Positions 54 through 55,687 are shown, numbered from the stretch's first letter. The stretch: DNA of 64,000 nt from Acidimicrobiia bacterium (GCA_965216945.1 CBDCGU010000003.1:899868-963867); one strand, 5' to 3'. Notes: a model not told the origin generated them from the sequence alone. Translations and numbers: made by a program.

Positions 54-2027
54 TCAGGCTTTGGCAGGTGCGGGATCGTCCGACGGTGGCTGTGCGGCGA
101 CGCGCCCTTCCGTCACGGTCAGCGTCTCCGGCCGCTGGATGCGGAGCGCCCCGGTCTCGGTGTGCTCCCACTTCGGCACGTCGGCGAACACCTTGGCCAC
201 TTCGTCGGCGTCGAGGGTCTCATTCTCCAGCAATGCGTTGGCGATGCCCTCGAGCGCCTCGCGATGCGTCGTCAGGATCTCACGGGCTTCGTCGTGAGCC
301 TGCGTGATCAGCCTGCGGACCTCGTCGTCGATGGCGGCGGCCACCTCGTCGGACAGGTCGTTCGAACGGGAGTAGTCGCGGCCGAGGAACACCTCGCCTT
401 CCGGCTTGCCGTAACGCAGCGGACCGAGACGGTCGCTCATGCCGAACTCCATCACCATCTTCCGAGCGAGATCCGTCGCTTTGTCGATGTCGTTCGATGC
501 CCCGGTGCTGGGATCGCCGAACACCAACTCCTCTGCTGTGCGGCCGCCGAGGGCGTAGGCAAGCTGGTCGACGAGCTCGCTTCGCCGGTTGAAGTACTTG
601 TCCTCCATGGGCAGTGCCAGGGTGTAGCCACCGGCACGACCCCGCGGGATGATCGTGACCTTGTGGATCGGGTCGAGGTTGGGAAGGACGTGACCGACGA
701 GGGCATGCCCTCCTTCGTGATAGGCGGTCAGGATCCGCTCTTCCTCGCTGATGACGCGGCTGCGGCGCTCGGGACCGGCGATCACGCGGTCGACGGCTTC
801 GTCCAACTCGAACATCGAGATCTCGGCCTTGTCGCGGCGGGCGGCCAGGAGCGCCGCCTCGTTGATGAGGTTGGCGAGGTCGGCACCGGTGAAACCCGGC
901 GTCTGCCGGGCGAGCGCGGCCATGTTGATGCCCTCGGCGAGCGGCTTGCCCTTCGAGTGCACCTCGAGAATGGCCTCTCGACCCTTCAGATCCGGCCGAT
1001 CCACCACGATCTGGCGATCGAACCGGCCGGGACGCAAGAGCGCGGGGTCGAGGATGTCGGGACGGTTGGTGGCGGCGATGACGATGACGCCGGTCTTCAC
1101 GTCGAAGCCGTCGAGCTCCACGAGGAGCTGGTTGAGGGTTTGCTCCCGCTCGTCGTGTCCGCCTCCGAGCCCGGCGCCACGATGACGGCCGACGGCGTCG
1201 ATCTCATCGATGAACACGATGGCCGGAGCGTTGTTCTTGGCCTGCTCGAACAGGTCGCGGACCCGGCTGGCGCCGACGCCGACGAACATCTCCACGAAGT
1301 CGGAGCCCGAGATCGAGAAGAAGGGCACACCGGCCTCGCCCGCAACGGCTCGCGCCAGCAGAGTCTTGCCGGTCCCCGGTGGACCGAAGAGCAGTACCCC
1401 CTTGGGGATCTTGGCGCCCATCGACCGAAACTTGGTCGGATTGGCCAGGAAGTCCTTGATCTCCTGCAACTCCTCGACCGCCTCGTCCGAGCCGGCGACA
1501 TCCTTGAAGGTGACCTTCGGACTGTCCTTGGAGACCTGCTTGGCCTTCGCCTTGCCGAACTGCATCACGCGGTTCCCCCCACCCTGCATCTGCATGAGGA
1601 TGAAGATGAAAACACCGAAGATCAGCAGGTACGGGAAGATCGTGCCGAGGAACCATTGGAACAGGGAAGGGTTCTCCGGGTCCGAGTTCACCGTGACGCC
1701 GTTGTCGAGCATGAGCTGCGTGAGCTGGCCCTCGTACTCGTTGGGATAGCCGACGATGAAGTCCGCGGTGCCGCCGGCCAGCACGGCGCTGTCGGCCAGT
1801 ATCCCCTCCAGCTGCTCGGACTTCTCCAGCAGCGTCACCTCTTCGACCGTGCCCGCCTCCACTTGGGCGATGAACTCGTTCAACGTCAGCTCGGTCGGCT
1901 GCGTCGCACCGTCCAAGAAGAAGTTCACGGCCATCAGCACGAGGAAGCCGACGGTCATGTAGACGAGAACGGTGCGGACGTTTCGATTCACGATGCTCCT
2001 AGAGACGCGCCAAACGGCGCCAGACAT
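54..2027 (-). CDS. ftsH: ATP-dependent zinc metalloprotease FtsH
   Basis: 657 aa. N-terminal TM segments, AAA Walker A GPPGTGKT, second region of homology, HEGGH zinc motif. Last gene of the tilS-hpt-ftsH operon. The true start may be an internal GTG. Confidence 0.95.
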
Positions 2028-45951: not shown

Positions 45952-46818
45952 TCAGCCCCGCACTCTTGCGAGTGCCACATCGAGCGTGCGGGCCAGCGAA
46001 GCCTGCCGGTTGTTGATGGCGCGAACCACGGCAATGGCGAAGGGGGCCAACACGGCCGCAGCGACGTAGAGCCCCAACTCGAGCCGAAGGACGTTGACGA
46101 ACGACTCGGCGGTGTCCTCGACCGTGGTGAACCACGCCACCGTGAAGAGCAGACCCCTCGCGATGAATATCGCCCACCACACATTGAAGTACCAGGGCAC
46201 GGCCGGCGGCGGGTGCCACTCGTGTGTTGCAGACTCGGGTGGGCGGCTCTGCACCCAGAGATCGCCGGCGATCTGCCGGGGGCGATACAGCGAGACGATC
46301 GGCACCACCCATCCAAAGATCGCCCATCCTGCCTTGTGCTCGCTACGTCTTCCCAGCGGTTCGAGGTTCTTGTACGAGCGGTAGAACCACACGATCCAGA
46401 CGATCGAGATCAGCAGGAACATCGCCCCTTGGAACCCCGCCGCCAGGACGTAGCCCTCCTCGATGTCGAGTAGCCGGTCGACGTTCTCGACAACGCCGGA
46501 GTCTCTCAGGTCGGTCAGGGCGGCCAGGTAGGGAAGGGCCATGGAGAATGACCATGCGACGAAGCCGAGGTAGACCCCCAAGAGGAGCTGGAGGAACACA
46601 CCGGTCCCGTAGGTGCTGCGGTAGTCGATCAGCCGCACACCGCGGACGAATGCGGGCTGCTCCGCGACCGCCGCGGCCGGACGACGCGTCTCGGAGATAC
46701 GGGACGAGCTCCAGAGGTCCTTCGTTTCGGCGCAATACGGACAGTCGTACTTGACGTTTACGTTTCTTCCACAGCCCAGACACGGCTCGAATCTCGCCAC
46801 CACATGCTCCCTACGCAC
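45952..46818 (-). CDS. membrane protein with N-terminal zinc-ribbon (DUF4328-like)
   Basis: 288 aa. CxxC...CxxC ribbon (CLGCGRN...CPYC) followed by a Trp-rich 4-TM domain. Confidence 0.6.
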   Translation of the reverse strand: MRREHVVARFEPCLGCGRNVNVKYDCPYCAETKDLWSSSRISETRRPAAAVAEQPAFVRGVRLIDYRSTYGTGVFLQLLLGVYLGFVAWSFSMALPYLAALTDLRDSGVVENVDRLLDIEEGYVLAAGFQGAMFLLISIVWIVWFYRSYKNLEPLGRRSEHKAGWAIFGWVVPIVSLYRPRQIAGDLWVQSRPPESATHEWHPPPAVPWYFNVWWAIFIARGLLFTVAWFTTVEDTAESFVNVLRLELGLYVAAAVLAPFAIAVVRAINNRQASLARTLDVALARVRG

Positions 46819-46915: not shown

Positions 46916-47635
46916 CTACGCCCGCCGTCCCGACACCGCCCGCAGTGGAGCACCGAGTTGATGGACGGCGGTGCGGATGCCGGCGTTGTGCCACACGTTG
47001 CGGGCGTACCGCCACTGGCGTTTGGAGTCGATGCGTTCAGCCGTGTGGGTTACCTCTCCGTCGACGCAGAACCGAGCCGCCAGGGAGCGCAGGGTGTGAT
47101 ACCAGATCGCATCCTCCTTGCGGTCGAAGTACAGGGTGAAGACGAGGTCGTAGATGGGGTCGCTCGTTCGGAAGTAGGGCTGGACCTGGGCGACCGTGGT
47201 CCCGGCTTCGTCGTGGGCGCTGAACGTGATCCATCCCGCAAAGATGTGGCCCTGCGGCAGGGCGAAGGCGAACGACTCGTCGTCGGCATACATCACCATG
47301 ACGCCCGTCGACAGCTTCATCCCGCTCTGGCTGGCGTTGATGACTCCGACGTCTCCCGGCTCGAGGGCGGCGACTGGGCCGTAGAGGTGGGAGTTGTCCG
47401 GCCAGAACGTCGTGTACTCCGCCTTCCATGTCGCCACGACGTCCTGAGGAGTCGCGTCGGCGCCGGTCAGAGGCACCTGATACGTCTTGCGCCACAGCTG
47501 GCCGAAGCCCTGGAGGGCGCCAGACAGTTGCTTTCCCGACACGTTGAGATTCAGCGCCTGCGGGGGGAGATCTCCCACGGCGAGCTCTTCGACCGGCTTC
47601 GCCCAGCGCTCTTCACCCGTTGTCGCGTCGTTCAT
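46916..47635 (-). CDS. conserved hypothetical protein, last gene of the partner-switching operon
   Basis: 239 aa soluble protein with no recognisable motifs. Its ATG overlaps the upstream STAS gene stop. Confidence 0.55.
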   Translation of the reverse strand: MNDATTGEERWAKPVEELAVGDLPPQALNLNVSGKQLSGALQGFGQLWRKTYQVPLTGADATPQDVVATWKAEYTTFWPDNSHLYGPVAALEPGDVGVINASQSGMKLSTGVMVMYADDESFAFALPQGHIFAGWITFSAHDEAGTTVAQVQPYFRTSDPIYDLVFTLYFDRKEDAIWYHTLRSLAARFCVDGEVTHTAERIDSKRQWRYARNVWHNAGIRTAVHQLGAPLRAVSGRRA

Positions 47636-47997
47636 CGTCGCCCTGCGTCGCTTGCGGCGACACCTTCGGCCTCGGCGTCGTAGATCGTGATGGCCTCGTC
47701 GAGCCGGGTGAGCCGGAAGATCTCCCGGTAGTGGTCGCTCAGGCCGAAGGCACCCAGCGTCTGCCCGTGGCGTTGCGTCCTCACGAGCAGCGTGACGAGC
47801 AGACCGATTCCCGAGCTGTTCATGTAGTCGAGTCCGCCGAAGTTCAGGAGCACGCCCGTGGCGCCGCGTCGGGTCGCTTGCTCGTGGGCGTCCTGGAGCA
47901 CCCCCTCGGCGAATCGGGTGATCTCTCCTTCGATGTCGATCACGGCGACTCGGTCCTCCGGATACCGGACGTTCATTGCAATCGATGCTTCAGGCAT
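47632..47997 (-). CDS. STAS-domain anti-sigma-factor antagonist (SpoIIAA/RsbV-like)
   Basis: 121 aa from the internal ATG. Phosphorylatable Ser motif DYMNSSGIGLL. Confidence 0.8.
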   Translation of the reverse strand: MPEASIAMNVRYPEDRVAVIDIEGEITRFAEGVLQDAHEQATRRGATGVLLNFGGLDYMNSSGIGLLVTLLVRTQRHGQTLGAFGLSDHYREIFRLTRLDEAITIYDAEAEGVAASDAGRR

Positions 47998-48373
47998 GAC
48001 GGCCTCCTCCCGGGGGATCGAACACGGTGGTCGCAAGCAGCGCCGTTGCCTCGTCGCCGACCACGGACATGAAGTCGACGAGTCGGGTGATCTCGAAGAT
48101 CTCGCGATAGTGGTCGCTCAGCCCGCAGGCGACGACGGGCACGCGCGCCGCTCGGGATCGACCGAGCAGGTCCACGATCAGGGCGATTCCGGTGCTGTTG
48201 ATGAACTCGGTTGCCGCAAAGTTGAGCACGAGACGTTGCGGGCTGCCCGCCAGCGCCTCACCCGTGACAGCTTCCAGGTCTTCGGCGGCGAAGGCGTTGA
48301 TGTCGCCGGCGAGGTCGATGACCACCGAGTCCTCGGCGGGGCGTATCTCTGCCTCGAATCGGCTGCCGTTCAC
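47990..48373 (-). CDS. STAS-domain anti-sigma-factor antagonist (second copy)
   Basis: 127 aa with the motif EFINSTGIALI. Confidence 0.8.
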   Translation of the reverse strand: MNGSRFEAEIRPAEDSVVIDLAGDINAFAAEDLEAVTGEALAGSPQRLVLNFAATEFINSTGIALIVDLLGRSRAARVPVVACGLSDHYREIFEITRLVDFMSVVGDEATALLATTVFDPPGGGRHA

Positions 48374-49941
48374 GGCCTGCTCCTTTCAACGTCCATGACG
48401 AGGCGTAGCGTGCGTCGCTCGCCGTCGGTCATGACCTTCAGCTCGTCCACCATGTGCTCGATGAGATAGACGCCCCAGCCCCTCGGCGCTTGCTCACCGG
48501 CCAGCTTGGCGGCGAGATCCGGACTCGTGGCCGCACCCATCTCACGATGCCCGCCCCGGTCGGTGACCTCGACAATCACGGACCGGGCCGACGCCAGCAC
48601 CCGAATGTCGACCGGCACGTCTGCGCTGAAGCGGTTGCCGTGCTCGATCGCATTCATCACCGCCTCGGAGACCGCAGTCTCCAGCTTCTGTACCTGGGCG
48701 GGCTCCAGGTCGAGATCCTCGACGGCAGAGACGACGCGGCGCACCGCCGCACGCTCGTTGCCCTCTTCGCTGGCGACCGAGAAGTCGGCCAGGATCTTGG
48801 TGCGGGCGTCGATCGACTGGGCGGCTTCTCCGGTGTGCTCGAAGCTGACGAGCGTCACGTCGTCCTCCACGTCGCCGCTGCCGTCGGTGAACTCGGCGAA
48901 CTCGGCGAGGAGATAGTCGATGAGGCCGTCACCCCCGGGATACTTGCCGACGAGCCCCATCAGCCGGGGGAAGCCGAACATTTCGCCGGCCGCGCTCCGG
49001 GCCTCGGCGAGCCCGTCGGAGTGGAATAGGAGGGAGCTGCCGACCGCCACCTCGAAGTCGACCTGGTCGTAGGCAGCTTCTTTCATGAGACCGAGGGGGA
49101 GCCCGGTGGCACGGACCTCCATCACCCCGGACGCCGCCCGCAGGTACGGCAGGTTGTGCCCGGCGTTCGCCATGGTGAGCTTGCCGGATGCCGGGTCGAA
49201 GGTGGCGTACTGGCAGGTGACGAACATGTTGCGGGGGATGTCGGCCACCAGCGACGCATTGACCCGCTCCAGCACGTAGGCGGGCTCGCCGGCCTGCTGC
49301 GCCGCTTCCCGCAACAGGCTGCGGGTCGTCGCCATGACGAGGGCCGCCGGCACGCCCTTGTCGGCGACGTCGCCGATCGCAAACCCGAGGCGGCCGTCTT
49401 CGAGGGGTACGAAGTCGTAGAAGTCGCCGCCCACTTCTCGCGCCGACTGGTAGAACGTGCCGATCTTCCAGCCGTCCACCTCGGGCAGCTGTGCCGGCAG
49501 GAAGTTCTGCTGGATCAGCCGAGCGACGCGTAGCTCCTGGGCGATCCGTTCCCGCTCCCTCACCTCATCTGCCTGCGTCCGCATGAGCTCGGCGAGGCGC
49601 AGCGCGGGGGCGGCGCGGGTGGCGAGGCGTTGCAGCAGCCGCCGATCCTCCGAGTTGTACGGCCGGCCGCTGCGCCGCGGCCCCAGCGACAGGATGCCGA
49701 CGAGCTCGCCTCCGGTGACGATCCCCACCGCCAACTCCACTCCCGCCTCCCGCAGTGAGAGGACGAGCGGGGTTTCGACGTCGAAGGTGTCGACGTCGAC
49801 CGGCGCATCGACGGTCATGAGATAGGCAACGAACGGGTCGGTGGGATCGATCCGGTGGCGCGCCGCTGCCGGCGGCTCGCCGGCCGTCGCCGTCTCGCCG
49901 CCGTCCTGGCGACGACCCGAGCGGGCGCTCCACCACCTCAC
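48370..49941 (-). CDS. fusion protein: partial GAF - PP2C (SpoIIE/RsbU) phosphatase - HATPase_c (RsbW-type Ser kinase)
   Basis: 523 aa from the GTG at 49941 (GTGA overlap with the upstream gene). GAF beta-strand motifs (PLVLSL, GELVGILSLG), PP2C motifs GDFYDF, GDVADKG and FHSDGL, and kinase N box NAIEHGN plus G boxes DRGGH and RGWGVYLI. Confidence 0.85.
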   Translation of the reverse strand: MRWWSARSGRRQDGGETATAGEPPAAARHRIDPTDPFVAYLMTVDAPVDVDTFDVETPLVLSLREAGVELAVGIVTGGELVGILSLGPRRSGRPYNSEDRRLLQRLATRAAPALRLAELMRTQADEVRERERIAQELRVARLIQQNFLPAQLPEVDGWKIGTFYQSAREVGGDFYDFVPLEDGRLGFAIGDVADKGVPAALVMATTRSLLREAAQQAGEPAYVLERVNASLVADIPRNMFVTCQYATFDPASGKLTMANAGHNLPYLRAASGVMEVRATGLPLGLMKEAAYDQVDFEVAVGSSLLFHSDGLAEARSAAGEMFGFPRLMGLVGKYPGGDGLIDYLLAEFAEFTDGSGDVEDDVTLVSFEHTGEAAQSIDARTKILADFSVASEEGNERAAVRRVVSAVEDLDLEPAQVQKLETAVSEAVMNAIEHGNRFSADVPVDIRVLASARSVIVEVTDRGGHREMGAATSPDLAAKLAGEQAPRGWGVYLIEHMVDELKVMTDGERRTLRLVMDVERSRP

Positions 49942-51242
49942 GTCTCGGCCTCCCCTCGTGACACCGGGAGCCAGAGCTCGATCGTGGCCGGCTGGAAGGC
50001 GCCTTCGGCAGCGGCGATGAGGTCGGGGCCGACGCTGTCGATGCGGCTGCGGGTGGCGAGCCGCTCGTCGAAATCGTCGAGCGAACGCTCCAGGTCCCAT
50101 CGTTGCCTGAAGAACACCCGGTCCACGACCCGTTGCAGCCGCTCTCGCAGCGGCAGGAAGAGTGCGGCGGCAGCCCCCGTGGCGAGCACCAGGGCCAGGG
50201 TGTTGTCGCGGATGCCGAACGACTCGCTGGAAATGGCCTGGAACATGGCGACGAGGGCGAAGTACGCGGCGAACAGCACCGACGTCAGCGTGAAGTACAC
50301 GACCGTGCGATTGATCGCCAGGTCCAGGTCCCACAGCCCGCGTTTCACGATCAGGTACACGAGCCCCAGCCCGAAGATGAGGGGCAGGGCAGCAACGAGA
50401 GATTCCACCAAGATTCGCCGCACCAGCTCACCCCCGGCCCGCGCCTGTGATTCCGACAGCGCAGCGAGCTGATCGGAGAACATGAGCACCGGAACGAAGA
50501 TGGCGGCCATCACCGCGGTCAGGCCCAAGACGGCGCGGCGCGTCGGATCGTTGGTGCGCACCAGTTGCACCAACTGCACCAGCCAGCCTGCGGCAACCAC
50601 GACGAGGACCCCAAGCGCCCCGGACTCCCACAAGGCGTCGTCTCCGACGAACACGAAGCCCGTGCCGAGCAGGATGAACCAGCCCGCGATCGCGAGGGCC
50701 AACCATCTGATGTTGCGGCCATCGGGAAGCACGAAGAGCATCCCCACCAGCGAGATGAAGAAGCTGATGCCCATCACGAGGGCGGCGATGCCGACGATGA
50801 GTGTGTCTTCTTCGAAGATCTCACCTGCTGTCACCCCAAGCCCGGAAATGAGGAACCACGACACGAAGACGGCGGCCCAACCGCGCCGGGTCCGCCACAC
50901 GAGCCATCCGACGAAAACCGAGCCGGTAAACAGCACGAGCATGCGGGAGACGACGAGGGCTCCGTGCCACTCGGCGCTGAGCCCGAGATCGGAGAGGGCG
51001 CGGAGCTGCGCGGATGAGAGGTGGTAATGCCCCGGGCCCCCGAACCAGGTGACGGGGCCTACTGTCGTCGCATCTCGCCACATGAGTCCCAGGCTGGCCG
51101 CAAGCAACACCGCGCCGCCCGCAGCCAGCACGAGCCACCACCACCGCGCCAGCCGGAGCGCGAGCCCGTCCGGTCGGGGATCTTGGGACAGCCACCTCAC
51201 GAGCGCCCTCACCGTGCCACCTCCGTCGAGTCCGGGATCCAC
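49938..51242 (-). CDS. polytopic membrane protein with C-terminal cytoplasmic GAF-N-terminal-like segment (sensor candidate)
   Basis: 434 aa, about 10 TM. The 90-aa C-terminal tail ends ...ATIELWLPVSRGEAET. A paralogue of the upstream gene. Confidence 0.7.
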   Translation of the reverse strand: MDPGLDGGGTVRALVRWLSQDPRPDGLALRLARWWWLVLAAGGAVLLAASLGLMWRDATTVGPVTWFGGPGHYHLSSAQLRALSDLGLSAEWHGALVVSRMLVLFTGSVFVGWLVWRTRRGWAAVFVSWFLISGLGVTAGEIFEEDTLIVGIAALVMGISFFISLVGMLFVLPDGRNIRWLALAIAGWFILLGTGFVFVGDDALWESGALGVLVVVAAGWLVQLVQLVRTNDPTRRAVLGLTAVMAAIFVPVLMFSDQLAALSESQARAGGELVRRILVESLVAALPLIFGLGLVYLIVKRGLWDLDLAINRTVVYFTLTSVLFAAYFALVAMFQAISSESFGIRDNTLALVLATGAAAALFLPLRERLQRVVDRVFFRQRWDLERSLDDFDERLATRSRIDSVGPDLIAAAEGAFQPATIELWLPVSRGEAET

Positions 51243-52891
51243 AACGCAACATCGACCGACCCGATGGAGGACTGCACGGCGTGGACCAGACGGTCCTGGA
51301 CCGCCGCGCTTGTCAGCTCATCGCGGACGGACGCGGTGAACGAGGCCAGCACCTCGTCGGCTTGGGCCTTGGTGGGGAACCAGCGATGGTCGATCCAGGA
51401 TTGAAAGCTGCGCCGCAGCGGGCGGTAGGACACCGCGATCACGCTGGTGGCAACGAGGATGGCCAGCGGGCGTCCGGCATCGCCGAACACGACCCCGGAG
51501 ACGGTCGTGGTGGCGATCACGATGGCGACGTACACGACCGCCAGCAGCGGCGTCACCATCGCCACCACGGCCGCCCGGTTCCAGAACAGCTTGATGTCCC
51601 ACCATCCCTGACGCCGCACCAGATGCAGCACCCACAGTCCCAGCAGCACGGGCGTCGCCAGGAACAGAGTGAGGTAGATCTGTTGCCACAGGAAGGCAGC
51701 GACGCTCATCCCGGCCGCGGCGTCATACAGCGCCTGCCCCGGCACGAGCCACAGGACCAGCACGATCATCGAAGCGAGGAGCAGGCGCGCCTCGCGTCGC
51801 TCCTCTGGTGACGCCTCCCGGTAACGGAAGACCTGCGACGCCATTGCGCCTCCCAGAACTCCAAGCGCACCCAGGGCGCCCGTCACCCACACCCAACCCT
51901 CGTCGCCGGACGACAGGAGCCACGCCGCCAGCACCGCGGCCGCCGCAACACCCAACAGCTTGAGATACGTTCCTCGGAAGCGGCCATCGGGGAACGTATA
52001 GAGGAAGCCGCCGAACATGATGAATGTGAGAACGCCCAGCGCATCCCCGACGAGGGCGGCAATATCGCCTATGCCGGCCACACTCTCGAAGCGAACGGTG
52101 CTGCCATCCCCGAACGTGACGAGGGGGGCGACGGCGATGACGAGCGTCACGAAGAGCGCGATCCAATGGCGCGGCCGCTTGGAGTAGATGAACCATGCGA
52201 TGCCCAGCGCCGCCGCCGACACCAGGCCCTGGCGCACGACCACGAGCCACGGATACCAGTCGGGGACCGTCAGAGACCCGGCCGTCAACGCCAGAGCCGT
52301 TGCGGAGTTCAGGCGATAGAACCCGGGCTCACCGATCTCCTGCGGAGAGCCGGTGAAACCGGCGAGCTGGCTCGCTTCGATCCACAGACCGGCCAGGTAG
52401 ACAACGGTGACGGCAGCCGTGAGCCCAAAGACCACGAGCCAGGTCGCCCGTGTCGCACGCAGTCTCCGGCCGGCAAGCAGTCTCGGTTCCGAGCTCGGGG
52501 CGGCACTGCCCCGCAGCCGCCGCCTTGCTGCGATCGTCACCAGCCAACCAACCCCCAGGGCCGCCAGGACCTGCGCCAGCGCAAGGCTCATCATGATCGG
52601 GATCCACAACCAGCTGTCTTCGAGCGGCTCTATGAGCCCGGAGAGCGCAACGACGGCGGAGACGACCGGACCGAACAGCGCCAACAGCACCAGCGCCGCG
52701 ATGATCCAGCGGCGCCGCCGTTGATACCACGGCTCGTAGACGTTCCCGTGCGCCTCGGCGGCCGCTCGGCGGCGGTCGATCACGCCGCCGGCGACGAGCC
52801 AGACGACGATGGGCGTCAGGGCCAGCCCAGCGATCAGAAGGACATTCACCGCGGCCTCGATTCCACGCTCGATGTCATCATCACAGATCAC
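51209..52891 (-). CDS. polytopic membrane protein, paralogue of the downstream gene
   Basis: 560 aa, about 13 TM. Its C-terminal tail ends ...VDVALWIPDSTEVAR, the same position as in its paralogue. Overlaps the next gene by 34 nt. Confidence 0.7.
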   Translation of the reverse strand: MICDDDIERGIEAAVNVLLIAGLALTPIVVWLVAGGVIDRRRAAAEAHGNVYEPWYQRRRRWIIAALVLLALFGPVVSAVVALSGLIEPLEDSWLWIPIMMSLALAQVLAALGVGWLVTIAARRRLRGSAAPSSEPRLLAGRRLRATRATWLVVFGLTAAVTVVYLAGLWIEASQLAGFTGSPQEIGEPGFYRLNSATALALTAGSLTVPDWYPWLVVVRQGLVSAAALGIAWFIYSKRPRHWIALFVTLVIAVAPLVTFGDGSTVRFESVAGIGDIAALVGDALGVLTFIMFGGFLYTFPDGRFRGTYLKLLGVAAAAVLAAWLLSSGDEGWVWVTGALGALGVLGGAMASQVFRYREASPEERREARLLLASMIVLVLWLVPGQALYDAAAGMSVAAFLWQQIYLTLFLATPVLLGLWVLHLVRRQGWWDIKLFWNRAAVVAMVTPLLAVVYVAIVIATTTVSGVVFGDAGRPLAILVATSVIAVSYRPLRRSFQSWIDHRWFPTKAQADEVLASFTASVRDELTSAAVQDRLVHAVQSSIGSVDVALWIPDSTEVAR

Positions 52892-53026: not shown

Positions 53027-55687
53027 GTGCCCACCTCAGTGCAGCTCTTCGGAGCACCCACGATCGTGCGCGACGGCGAGTCGCCGCGGATCGACACCCG
53101 AAAGGCAGTGGCGATCCTCGCCTATCTCGCCGTCGAAGGGCCCGCGGTGCGGCGCGACCGCCTGGCGTCGCTGCTGTGGCCCGAGTCGTCTCAAGACCGG
53201 GCCCGGGCGGTGCTGCGCCGCACGCTGACGTCACTGCGCCGCGCCGTCGGGCGAGATGCCATTGCCGCCACCCGGGAGACGGTCGCCCTCGTCCCGACGG
53301 CCGTCACCGTCGACTGCATCGAGTTCGCCGAGGCTATGGCGGCCGGTGACCTCGCCACCTCGGCAGCCATCTACCGCGGTGAGTTCCTCGCCGGATTCTC
53401 GCTGCGAGACGCCCCGGATTTCGACGACTGGCACCGTCTCGAATCCGATCGCTTCCGCCACGAGGCGGATCGGGCGCTCGAGGGGCTTGCGGCAAACGCG
53501 GCGGAGCGGGGCCATCTGGCCGAGGCGTTCGCAACCGCGCAGCGTCGCATCAAGTTGGATCCGCTCAACGAGGACGCCTACCGGACGGCGATGCTGCTGG
53601 CAGCGAAGCAGGGCAAGGGCTCCGAGGCCGTGGCGCTCTATCGCACGTGCCTGCGGACTCTCGAGGAAGAGCTGGCGGTGGAACCCCTGCCGGCGACGGT
53701 CGCCGTGTACGAGGCGATCCGGAGGGGGGAGGTGCCGGCCGAACCGCAGCCCCGGCCCTCCGAGCCGCCGCTCGACGCCGCGGCACTGGCGGAACCGGCC
53801 CTCGTCGGGCGAGACGGCGAGCTGGCCCGGCTGGATGCTGCACTCATCACTCCGGGGGGGCGCGCCATTGCGGTCGCAGGCGGCCCGGGTACCGGCAAGA
53901 CCAGACTGCTGGAGACCTGGCGGGGCGAACTCGAAGCCAGGGGACGGCGCGTCGTGCTCATCCGGTGCTTCGACGGAGAGCAGGGGCTTCCCTTCGCCCC
54001 GCTCCTCACCCTCGTGCGCCGTCTGGCGAGCGGGGACGACCCGCTCGCCTCCGAGCTGATACAGCTCCTCGCCGGACCCGACACGGATTCGAGCCACCGT
54101 GACGGACCGGGACGCCGGCTCGCCGCGTTCGAGGCGCTCCTGGCGCTGTTCGCCCGCGAAGGGCTGCGCGGCGGCGTACTCATCGTCGACGACGCCCACC
54201 TCGCCGACCCCTCGAGCCGCGAGTTCTTCACATATGTGGCCCGGAGGGTCGATCTGCTCGACTTGGTGGTGGTGCTGAGTACTGCGCCCGGGCTCGCCAT
54301 GGGGCTCCGCGACGTCGCCCACGAGACCCTGTGGCTCGCTCCCCTCTCGGCCGGCGAGATCCGGCGTCTGGCTGATCTCCTCGCCGTCACCGACGAGAAG
54401 ATCGTGGCCGAGACGGTCGAGACGACGGGAGGGATTCCGGCTCTCGTGCTGGCGAGTCTCCAGCGCAGGGCTCCGGATCGGCCGGCGGCGGTCGCCACGC
54501 CCACACTCGATGCCCTCCCGGAGGCGGTGCGCCAGGTCATGGAAGCAGCCGCGACGGTGGATCGACCCGCCGACATCGCACTGCTCCAGCATGTCGCCGG
54601 CCGCAGCCTGGCCGAGATCGCGGGGGCGGTGGAGACCCTGGTGCAGAACCGCCTCGTCCGCTTCACCGCGGGAGGTACGGTCGAGCCGGCAGCCGCTCAC
54701 GTCGTCGCAGAAGTGCTCACCGGGATCAACCCCGCACGCCGCCGCCTGCTCCACGACCGTGCCGCCGAGCGGCTGCAACGAACTCCGGGCAAGGAGGCCG
54801 AGGCGGCGCGCCATCACCACCTCGCCGGGAACGACGCCGAGGCTGCCCGACTGTACGCAAGCGCTGCCGAACGGGCCGCGATGTCATCGGCCAATGCCGA
54901 GGCTGCCCGGCACCTGGGCCGTGCCCTTGCTCTCGGCCATCCGGACCCCGCGAGGCTGCACACTCTCTTGGGAGATGTGGAGAGCTTCGAAGGCAGGTAC
55001 GCAGGGGCGCGGGCGGCATACGAGAAGGCGGCTGCACTCACGGCAGGGAACGAGCTCGCTCAGATCGAGCACAGGTTGGGTCTGCTGGCCCTGCGTCGCG
55101 GTGACCTGGCGGCGGCCGAGAGCCATCTGCGCTCCGGGCTGCTCGAGCTCGACGACGGCCCGGCGGTTCGATCCCGGATCCTGGCGGCGCTCGCCGTGGT
55201 GAGCGAACGGACGGGGAATACCGAGGAAGCCGGTTGCCTCGGGGCTGAGGCGGTGGCGACCGCATCGGAGTCGGGCGACGTCACGACCGAAGCCCAGGCG
55301 CACAACGTTGCCGGCCTGGCCGCCCTGGCGCGCGGAGATCATGCTTCCGCCGCCCGTGAGCTGCGCGATGCGCTGCGTCTCGGTGAGCTGGCGGGCTCGC
55401 CCGATGCGACGGCGGCAGCCCACAACGGGCTCGGCCTGCTCGCCATGGCACGCGACGATCCGGCCACCGCCCTAGGCCACTTCGAGGCGGCGGTGACGAT
55501 TGTCGAACGAATCGCCGATCGGCACCACCTCGCCGTTGCCCTCAGCAACCTCGGGGACGCACAGCAGGCACTGGGAAAACGTGAGGCTGCCCAGGACGCG
55601 ATCCGACGCTCGGCGACGCTGCTCGCCGACATCGGCGGTCACCCCGCAGAAGGTCGAGCGGGCGTATGGAGCCTCACGAGCTGGTAG
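53027..55687 (+). CDS. SARP/AfsR-family transcriptional regulator (OmpR-type wHTH, BTAD, NB-ARC-like ATPase, TPR)
   Basis: 886 aa. N-terminal SARP DNA-binding and BTAD region, P-loop GGPGTGKT, and C-terminal TPR-like Ala-rich repeats. Confidence 0.85.
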   Translation: MPTSVQLFGAPTIVRDGESPRIDTRKAVAILAYLAVEGPAVRRDRLASLLWPESSQDRARAVLRRTLTSLRRAVGRDAIAATRETVALVPTAVTVDCIEFAEAMAAGDLATSAAIYRGEFLAGFSLRDAPDFDDWHRLESDRFRHEADRALEGLAANAAERGHLAEAFATAQRRIKLDPLNEDAYRTAMLLAAKQGKGSEAVALYRTCLRTLEEELAVEPLPATVAVYEAIRRGEVPAEPQPRPSEPPLDAAALAEPALVGRDGELARLDAALITPGGRAIAVAGGPGTGKTRLLETWRGELEARGRRVVLIRCFDGEQGLPFAPLLTLVRRLASGDDPLASELIQLLAGPDTDSSHRDGPGRRLAAFEALLALFAREGLRGGVLIVDDAHLADPSSREFFTYVARRVDLLDLVVVLSTAPGLAMGLRDVAHETLWLAPLSAGEIRRLADLLAVTDEKIVAETVETTGGIPALVLASLQRRAPDRPAAVATPTLDALPEAVRQVMEAAATVDRPADIALLQHVAGRSLAEIAGAVETLVQNRLVRFTAGGTVEPAAAHVVAEVLTGINPARRRLLHDRAAERLQRTPGKEAEAARHHHLAGNDAEAARLYASAAERAAMSSANAEAARHLGRALALGHPDPARLHTLLGDVESFEGRYAGARAAYEKAAALTAGNELAQIEHRLGLLALRRGDLAAAESHLRSGLLELDDGPAVRSRILAALAVVSERTGNTEEAGCLGAEAVATASESGDVTTEAQAHNVAGLAALARGDHASAARELRDALRLGELAGSPDATAAAHNGLGLLAMARDDPATALGHFEAAVTIVERIADRHHLAVALSNLGDAQQALGKREAAQDAIRRSATLLADIGGHPAEGRAGVWSLTSW

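Follow-up and report, generated by a model that had tools for sequence, protein, structure and literature searches.

We describe a predicted membrane-coupled signalling module in a 64,000-nucleotide (nt) stretch of DNA from an Acidimicrobiia bacterium (GCA_965216945.1 CBDCGU010000003.1:899868-963867). The whole stretch is called the window, and positions are counted from its first letter. In this module two genes for polytopic membrane proteins, here named mem1 and mem2, are followed by a gene for a soluble protein with phosphatase and kinase domains, and then by genes for two STAS proteins. All genes of the module lie on the minus strand and are tightly packed as one operon. GAF and PAS sensor domains are usually treated as indivisible modules that are shuffled by gene fusion, and the subject here is a GAF domain that appears to be divided between the end of mem2 and the start of the phosphatase-kinase. 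An earlier note on this DNA had pointed to such a division and offered four explanations: a genuine two-polypeptide sensor, a frameshift that split an ancestral 7TM-GAF-PP2C-HATPase gene, a sequencing error, or a ribosomal frameshift site. The coordinates, frames, GTGA junction and open reading frame (ORF) content that it gave are all present in the sequence. The features needed for the argument are the following.

51209..52891, minus strand: mem1, a polytopic membrane paralogue of 560 amino acids (aa), recognised by its hydrophobic segments
51209-51212, minus strand: GTGA overlap of the mem1 stop and the mem2 GTG start, read from the sequence
49938..51212, minus strand: mem2, a 424-aa polytopic membrane protein (the mechanical ORF reaches 51242)
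49941..50153, minus strand: cytoplasmic C-terminal tail of mem2, 71 aa, PLRERLQRVVDR...GEAET, with juxtamembrane helices and a GAF-like helix and strand
49968..50045, minus strand: putative donor element encoded in mem2, GAF helix alpha-1 and strand beta-1, RIDSVGPDLIAAAEGAFQPATIELWL
49949..49955, minus strand: Shine-Dalgarno sequence GGGGAGG within the end of mem2, 7 nt before the downstream GTG, read from the sequence
49938..49941, minus strand: GTGA overlap of the mem2 stop and the phosphatase-kinase start, read from the sequence
48370..49941, minus strand: 523-aa half-GAF / PP2C (SpoIIE) / HATPase_c_2 protein, assigned by Pfam and identical to database protein P0029
49855..49938, minus strand: N-terminal basic motif RWWSARSGRR and low-complexity linker of about 30 aa, defined from relatives and the structure model
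49600..49854, minus strand: putative acceptor half-GAF, alpha2-beta3-alpha4-beta4-beta5-alpha5, matched by positions 35-133 or 50-133 only of the Pfam GAF profile
49492..49599, minus strand: long helical linker from GAF alpha-5 to the phosphatase domain, ...MRTQADEVRERERIAQELRVARLIQQNFLP, a continuous helix (H168-218) in the model
48838..49398, minus strand: PP2C/PPM phosphatase domain (PF07228 SpoIIE, E 1.5e-47, 162.5 bits, residues 182-368, profile 2-190 of 192)
48397..48750, minus strand: RsbW/SpoIIAB-like serine kinase / anti-sigma domain (PF13581 HATPase_c_2, E 1.5e-20, 73.9 bits, residues 398-515, profile 9-126 of 127)

The start of mem2 was taken as the GTG at 51212 from an identical database protein, P0001 (424 aa). 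At the other end of the gene, the mem2 TGA (49938-49940) overlaps a GTG (49939-49941) that begins the frame VRWWSARSGRRQDGG... of the phosphatase-kinase. The GC content at third codon positions (GC3) in the called frames flanking this junction is 0.87 and 0.88. Overlaps of 4 nt are common between co-translated genes of an operon, and the window contains further examples between mem1 and mem2 and between the phosphatase gene and the first STAS gene. In this layout mem2 and the phosphatase-kinase are translated separately, with translation coupled via the GTGA overlap after the Shine-Dalgarno sequence.

The soluble 523-aa protein starts with the later part of a GAF fold (alpha2 to alpha5), followed by the long helix, the PP2C domain and the RsbW-like kinase domain. 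The GAF profile PF01590 matches residues 22-114 with 28.6 bits (cut-off 22.4, E 2.4e-6), covering only positions 35-133 of 133, so this GAF is without its N-terminal quarter; the matches of GAF_2 (25.0 bits) and GAF_3 (18.8 bits) are under their cut-offs. The half-GAF reads DPFVAYL...PVDVD...TPLVLSLREAG...ELAVGIV..GELVGILSLG...DRRLLQRLATRAAPALRLAEL. A complete GAF within a single polypeptide of the window was not found with Pfam, which gave the partial match downstream and no match in the membrane protein alone. In the PP2C domain D191, D309, D360 and D361 are invariant across 25 relatives, and these we take to be the metal ligands. The NCBIfam equivalog models spIIAB and RsbW match the kinase domain weakly, with scores well under their cut-offs, and the domain is therefore a member of the family rather than an orthologue of either. 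The protein has thousands of relatives, the best 120 of which (423-590 aa, 50-78% identity) come from Kribbella, Acidimicrobiales, Chloroflexi and Dehalococcoidia. The relatives share an order of short hydrophobic-basic motif, low-complexity linker and half-GAF of the pattern 'DPfvAYL..gPVD...l.sP....L..aGv.L.VPL..qGEL.G.L.LGPR'. The half-GAF is present in 118 of the best 120, and the N-terminal motif is kept in most relatives and missing from the 495-500-aa forms.

The part of the fold that is missing downstream has a counterpart at the end of the membrane proteins. The mem2 ORF has about ten hydrophobic segments and ends in ...LDDFDERLATRSRIDSVGPDLIAAAEGAFQPATIELWLPVSRGEAET*. No Pfam or NCBIfam family matched mem1 or mem2; the HisKA_7TM-like domain (PF16927) has no match in either, and a precomputed match was found only in a distant relative, P0009. 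The family is nevertheless very large, with 11,640 representatives at E<=1e-3 and 4,483 at E<=1e-10 in an exhaustive search with mem2. It is defined by a tail motif, P.R.R.Q...DRRFyR.rYDa...P..v.LWl, which a hidden Markov model (HMM) of the tail detects in 176 of 177 membrane relatives. Most of these motif-bearing proteins (157 of 176) end -8 to +30 residues from the mem2 end, just past the strand 'P..v.LWl', while 17 extend for more than 100 residues and are histidine kinases (GAF-HisKA_3-HATPase), one PP2C protein (P0017), or proteins with a second membrane module. The tail of mem1 is of a like helix-strand kind (...SAAVQDRLVHAVQSSIGSVDVALWIPDSTEVAR) and its C-terminus is matched by the tail HMM (E 4.3e-13); with two such tails, the operon encodes two potential GAF donors for one acceptor. 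At their cytoplasmic C-terminus, mem1 and mem2 both carry the opening helix and strand of the GAF fold. None of the 120 best split phosphatases was matched by the tail HMM, and in these comparisons tail and half-GAF appear strictly complementary between the two families.

The boundary between the two proteins is conserved. Besides the identical protein, the mem2 search returned four orthologues (P0002-P0005, 56-59% identity, 418-422 aa), which stop at the same point as mem2 with the endings ...ELWIPVSTEGPA or ...ELWLPVSGAEARR. On the contigs of one orthologue (L001/L002) the 4-nt overlap recurs and leads into a 521-aa GAF(weak)-SpoIIE-HATPase_c_2 gene, after which come two STAS genes and a 245-aa gene; in L001 the sequence GGAGGGG lies 5 nt upstream of the ATG. 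A tail-bearing gene stands immediately upstream of the phosphatase gene at 18 genome or Logan loci and 8 metagenome loci. The two genes share a 4-nt ATGA/GTGA overlap at L001, L015, L017, L018, L019 and L020. At other loci, from Actinomycetota and Chloroflexota, they are separated by stop-containing spacers of 2-135 nt (L013, L021, L022, L023, L029, L034-L037 and L044), several with their own Shine-Dalgarno sequence, e.g. aagaggaggtgagATG in L021. A boundary that is kept while the junction sequence varies cannot be the result of frameshifting, read-through or a sequencing indel. Among 21 genome loci with a close phosphatase homologue, each fetched with up to 6 kb of flank on each side, 20 hold a tail-bearing gene or a fusion. 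The usual place of the membrane genes is immediately upstream of the phosphatase, but five loci have them 3' of the STAS genes. Adjacency is thus common without being required, a pattern that speaks for functional linkage and against a single break in a gene.

One fused protein could in principle be made from both ORFs by programmed -1 frameshifting or other recoding at the GTGA, and the split would then be only apparent. It is true that the phosphatase-kinase frame, -1 with respect to mem2, stays open a long way 5' of the junction (mechanical ORF to 50334), and that fused proteins of this architecture exist elsewhere. However, no slippery heptamer X XXY YYZ occurs in the last 120 nt of mem2, the junction sequences are not conserved, and the strong Shine-Dalgarno sequence is properly spaced from the GTG. 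The other 4-nt overlaps in the operon also speak for ordinary gene junctions, and in the relatives with stop-containing spacers no frameshift could join the genes. We therefore regard recoding as very improbable, and the ribosomal frameshift site of the earlier note is set aside on the same grounds.

Even less credible is a local artefact or lesion, in which an indel introduced by sequencing or assembly, or a frameshift mutation of recent origin, would have made a pseudogene pair out of a fused gene. The junction does fall exactly in a domain loop and the frames differ by one base. Real frameshift artefacts also occur in the family: in L007 (1984..3601; ERZ26222911, a contig of 3x coverage) the phosphatase gene lies in two frames within the GAF-linker region and is annotated as a 423-aa remnant, P0034, a break that is probably an assembly error. 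Against this, the window's boundary recurs in independent assemblies of the 56-59% orthologues and in 26 more distant loci with differing junction sequences, and it holds family-wide, as the endings of the 157 relatives show. The overlap itself is repeated in L001/L002, GC3 is high in the called frame on both sides, and a Shine-Dalgarno sequence and start are in place. On these comparative data, an artefact or lesion is refuted, and with it the suggestion of a sequencing error or recent frameshift. The conserved boundary and the separate-gene junctions instead pick out the genuine two-polypeptide sensor among the four explanations. The earlier note had added that two-protein orthologues with the same boundary, combined with a complete GAF inside the downstream protein, would refute a split domain. 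Such orthologues were found, but the downstream protein holds no complete GAF by Pfam; only one half of this combination applies, and the finding of a split GAF is not refuted by it.

Tail and half-GAF also occur in single chains. They are joined in P0017, L030 (=P0298), L087, L088, L097 and L103, and 103 of the 120 matches listed in a search seeded with L030 carry both in cis. Most matches of this search are 760-1140 aa long, and the distance from tail to half-GAF in cis is 9-81 residues (median 28). When the window's two ORFs are conceptually fused, they align with the 754-aa P0017 in one high-scoring segment pair across the junction (39% identity, E 2e-79). In L012 the 392-aa product of the gene 5' of fused P0017 was ruled out as a tail-bearing paralogue, since the tail HMM does not match it.

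Four of the fusions were scanned with Pfam, and in these the GAF match is near full length: P0298 (residues 514-646, profile 6-130), P0305 (510-697, profile 1-133), P0311 (510-657, profile 1-133) and P0395 (519-647, profile 1-132). Transferred through the alignment A5 described below, these envelopes start at R-IDSVGPDLIAAAEGAFQPATIELWL in the mem2 tail, within the residues aligned to the putative donor element, and end at ...APALRLAEL downstream, which corresponds to 49600..50045 of the window. Constructs made from the window behave similarly, if less clearly. The half-GAF alone scores 28.3 bits over profile positions 50-133, the mem2 tail followed by VRWWSARSG and the half-GAF, with the linker deleted, scores 33.0 bits over 25-133, and the mem1 tail with the half-GAF scores 32.0 bits over 7-133. 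Neither a simple read-through fusion nor the tails alone extended the Pfam GAF match; in the read-through fusion this is because the 30-aa low-complexity linker breaks the local alignment.

A structure model was made with AlphaFold2 for a chimera of the mem2 tail and downstream residues 1-149, joined as one artificial chain of 220 residues. The alignment supplied (A5) consisted of database proteins, namely natural fusions, membrane proteins and phosphatases, and only the fusions provide paired rows; phosphatase rows whose basic N-termini were misaligned onto the tail columns were left out. Without an alignment the model is meaningless, with a predicted local distance difference test (pLDDT) score of 43. 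With A5 the mean pLDDT is 86 and the predicted template modelling score (pTM) is 0.77. The tail is modelled as helices at 2-33 and 38-53 and a strand at 58-61, and the second helix and the strand reach pLDDT 93-94. The half-GAF and the long alpha-5/linker helix (168-218) have values of 92-98, and the junction and linker (chimera residues 61-100) have values of 55-67, with a three-residue strand (73-75) at RWW. Compared with GAF domain structures, 129-175 residues of the model can be aligned, e.g. 152 of 161 in 3jab_B. The downstream part gives 120 ordered residues, including about 35 of the linker helix past the domain; alignment of at least 150 residues to GAF domains of 160 residues therefore places the tail helix and strand in the canonical alpha-1/beta-1 positions. 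As modelled, the window's two pieces are compatible with one complete GAF fold, an antiparallel sheet with a helix from the N-terminal and one from the C-terminal end at its flanks. The proposal that one GAF is divided between the two ORFs is thus upheld by the partial downstream profile, by the fusions with a near-full GAF and by the composite model, and the fusion envelopes and joined model likewise agree with the reading of the mem2 tail as GAF helix-1 and strand beta-1.

The fused and split forms are interleaved in a crude midpoint-rooted neighbour-joining tree of the half-GAF and PP2C region, drawn without support values. In this tree the fused P0017, P0398/9 and L097 are basal, a large fused clade of L030-like proteins is nested in split forms, and the clade of the window is all split. 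This suggests repeated interconversion of fused and split forms, and such interleaving is as expected if the cis and trans versions are functionally interchangeable. The 7TM-GAF-PP2C-HATPase gene envisaged earlier as ancestral does exist as an architecture, in more than 100 clusters of natural fusions, and the interleaved tree is compatible with either direction, fission or fusion.

Taken together, we think it probable that the window encodes a natural, evolutionarily maintained GAF domain split between two polypeptides of one signalling module, with the fold completed in trans. Several points weigh against this reading. The model is of an artificial chain, with an alignment dominated by natural fusions, and speaks for compatibility, not for binding. 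Joining the mem2 tail directly to the half-GAF does not extend the Pfam match, and the gains from added tails are small (4-5 bits). The earlier assignment of VRWWSARSG as GAF beta-2 is weakly supported: the model has a short strand here and the profile match reaches position 25 once the linker is removed, but the segment is poorly predicted (pLDDT about 55) and the motif is not universal, being missing in some relatives. There are also several donor paralogues per acceptor. Across clusters 2-6 tail-bearing paralogues accompany each phosphatase (four in Kribbella, five or more in L035 and L044). Tail-bearing membrane proteins are, moreover, very numerous and mostly stand-alone, far beyond what is tied to phosphatases, and some (L008, L009) have no phosphatase on the available contig. 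Finally, P0155, P0158, P0221 and P0246 consist of two complete membrane modules in tandem, both ending in a tail; the first tail lies inside the chain, ahead of a linker and the second module. The tail may therefore serve a function without a half-GAF, and a role as a C-terminal plug only is hard to reconcile with these relatives.

These observations on the tails are what would be expected if the pieces are homologous to parts of a GAF but no longer assemble. In that case the tail would be an autonomous module for self-association or for another partner, the reduced GAF would act alone as a degenerate dimerisation or linker domain, and adjacency of the genes would reflect co-regulation. The loci in which the membrane genes lie 3' of the STAS genes and not next to the phosphatase also fit this account, as does the downstream GAF scoring above the Pfam gathering threshold by itself. 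Against it stands the topology of the fold: by standard GAF topology, a three-strand half-GAF without beta-1 would expose the core of the sheet. More than 100 natural fusions keep both pieces in cis with a flexible spacer, and those scanned have a nearly complete Pfam GAF. The absence of the tail from all 120 best split phosphatases, the linkage kept in 20 of 21 genome loci and a composite model that is confident precisely at the tail helix and strand are also difficult to explain if the pieces do not come together. We consider loss of assembly less likely than completion in trans, but it is the main rival.

If the GAF is completed in trans, as we favour, the data suggest that the membrane sensors plug a helix and a strand into the cytoplasmic enzyme to control it. 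The strand of the membrane-protein tail would insert into the open sheet of the half-GAF and the tail helix would pack on alpha-5. In this way the tail of mem2, and probably that of mem1, would complete the GAF and tether the phosphatase-kinase to a membrane sensor; either of these tandem paralogues may be the donor of helix 1 and strand 1. A conformational change in the membrane domain could then be relayed by the composite GAF and the alpha-5 coiled-coil linker to the PP2C domain. The balance of phosphatase and kinase activity would determine how far the two STAS proteins are phosphorylated, in line with other sensor-controlled PPM phosphatases, and output would follow via a target, for which the 239-aa protein encoded at the end of the module and a divergently encoded BTAD/TPR regulator (both described below) are candidates. 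With 2-6 tail-bearing paralogues to each phosphatase, one acceptor may be shared by several sensors or be the object of competition among them. A more general and more tentative proposal, which we put forward with rather low confidence, is that the half-GAF acts as a 'socket' for the tail, a portable 'plug'. Polytopic sensors of a large family, with thousands of sequence clusters in Actinomycetota and Chloroflexota, might in this way couple to effectors by completing a GAF in trans, with two to six sensors competing or combining on one dimeric effector as an input multiplexer that is interconvertible with single-chain receptors.

The closest known proteins are single-chain membrane-GAF-PP2C(-HATPase_c_2) phosphatases and membrane-GAF-HisKA_3 kinases (P0298/HVD15848.1-like, P0017, P0014 and P0413). 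They have the same membrane module, the juxtamembrane motif P.R.R.Q...DRRF.R..YD and a GAF, and the phosphatases among them also have PP2C and kinase domains as in the window. In these homologues the GAF is continuous, whereas that of the window is cut in the loop after strand 1 and its halves are separate products. No experimental study of the single-chain homologues was found in the literature searched.

In the general stress response of Bacillus subtilis, separate partners (RsbT for RsbU, RsbQ for RsbP) switch a PPM phosphatase that acts on a STAS protein, via an N-terminal sensor or dimerisation domain and a helical linker (PMC12143880). The coiled-coil linker mechanism is established for RsbU and has been proposed for PPM phosphatases controlled by GAF, PAS and receiver domains (PMC12143880). 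The window protein is predicted to have the same long linker helix. RsbT and RsbQ are, however, complete folded proteins that act on a complete N-terminal domain, while the partner in the window would supply missing secondary-structure elements; this partner is also embedded in the membrane, and phosphatase and kinase share one chain. Multidomain partner-switching proteins are known from actinobacteria, such as Rv1364c of M. tuberculosis (PAS-PP2C-kinase-STAS) and OsaC of S. coelicolor (kinase, PAS, GAF, PP2C) (PMC12143880). Like the window protein, these combine PP2C, an RsbW-like kinase and an N-terminal sensor in one chain, in high-GC Gram-positives and with STAS substrates, but their sensor domains are complete and soluble, and no membrane donor or split domain has been described for them.

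SpoIIE of Bacillus has a PP2C domain of the same Pfam family that acts on a STAS protein (SpoIIAA) and is tied to a polytopic membrane domain. There the membrane domain and phosphatase are in one chain without a GAF, and the membrane domains are unrelated in sequence (those of the window have no Pfam or NCBIfam match). An S-component / 5TMR receptor (PMC11109136) was also considered; it has a different membrane fold and is not relevant. GAF-PP2C phosphatases, PP2C-kinase fusions (Rv1364c, OsaC), membrane-anchored SpoIIE and partner-activated RsbU are thus already known. Fold complementation between polypeptides is known from donor-strand complementation in chaperone-usher pili and from the 'split PH domains' of eukaryotic signalling proteins. 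In these, too, a domain that is short of a strand or a half is completed by another polypeptide through a specific interface, but the folds, cellular roles and evolutionary origins differ. In the literature searched we did not find a natural GAF divided between a membrane protein and an effector, across phyla and with multiple donors.

If the reading is true, fold complementation would itself be a bacterial signalling interface. For the very large family of 'hypothetical' polytopic proteins with this tail a role could then be predicted, namely that of detachable sensors serving partner-switching phosphatases and perhaps kinases. This would offer a testable route to the cognate effectors of orphan membrane sensors and a natural template for split-sensor engineering. 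It also carries a warning for annotation, in that an N-terminal 'partial GAF' adjoining a membrane gene need not mark a pseudogene. Even if the pieces do not assemble, the locus would still be a clean case of an ancient, retained gene fission inside a domain.

The remaining genes around the junction are the following.

47990..48373, minus strand: STAS protein 1, of the anti-sigma-factor antagonist type (PF01740 4.3e-11; TIGR00377 2.4e-14); its start overlaps the preceding stop by 4 nt
47632..48036, minus strand: STAS protein 2 (PF01740 4e-12; TIGR00377 2.8e-14)
46916..47635, minus strand: conserved 239-aa protein, last gene of the module, with homologues in related clusters
53027..55687, plus strand: divergent BTAD-AAA_16-TPR regulator, 886 aa (Pfam BTAD 1.4e-16, AAA_16 4.5e-16, TPR_12)
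45952..46818, minus strand: DUF4328 membrane protein with an N-terminal CxxC...CPYC (E 1.4e-24), just 3' of the operon and with no evident link to it

A partner-switching set is therefore encoded together, with the fused PP2C and kinase followed by two STAS genes, and this order is kept in L001, L013, L015 and L017. No sigma-factor family was found with Pfam and NCBIfam among the genes scanned between 45952 and 55687. The 239-aa protein has no Pfam, NCBIfam or PDB match; homologues are present in all related clusters examined (L001, L010, L013, L015 and L017, E 8e-64 to 6e-140), and it may be the output or target of the partner-switching system.

Clusters of this kind occur in Kribbella, Acidimicrobiia, Gaiellaceae and Chloroflexota. 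One gene order is shared by Kribbella pratensis (L013), a Dehalococcoidia metagenome-assembled genome (L015) and a contig from an uncultured actinobacterium (L017): a divergent BTAD-AAA-TPR gene is followed by 2-4 membrane paralogues in tandem, then by the half-GAF phosphatase-kinase, a pair of STAS-type genes and a gene for a conserved protein of about 240 aa. The BTAD-AAA_16-TPR regulator is SARP/AfsR-like, and its adjoining the cluster in these three loci as well as in the window suggests that it is part of this system.

A weak cupredoxin-like domain (PF13473) precedes the membrane module in many of the natural fusions (L030 / P0298-P0399 N-termini). In L015 a separate cupredoxin gene (1190..1984) heads the membrane-gene array, and a relative of L009 has one downstream; no cupredoxin was found among the window genes scanned. 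The association hints at copper or redox sensing. The cluster of P0015 (L010, 473..2331) has one gene for the phosphatase (458 aa, with a weak GAF and SpoIIE) and another for the HATPase_c_2 kinase (161 aa), and its membrane genes follow those for the STAS proteins. The module has evidently been rearranged freely by fusion and fission at several points.

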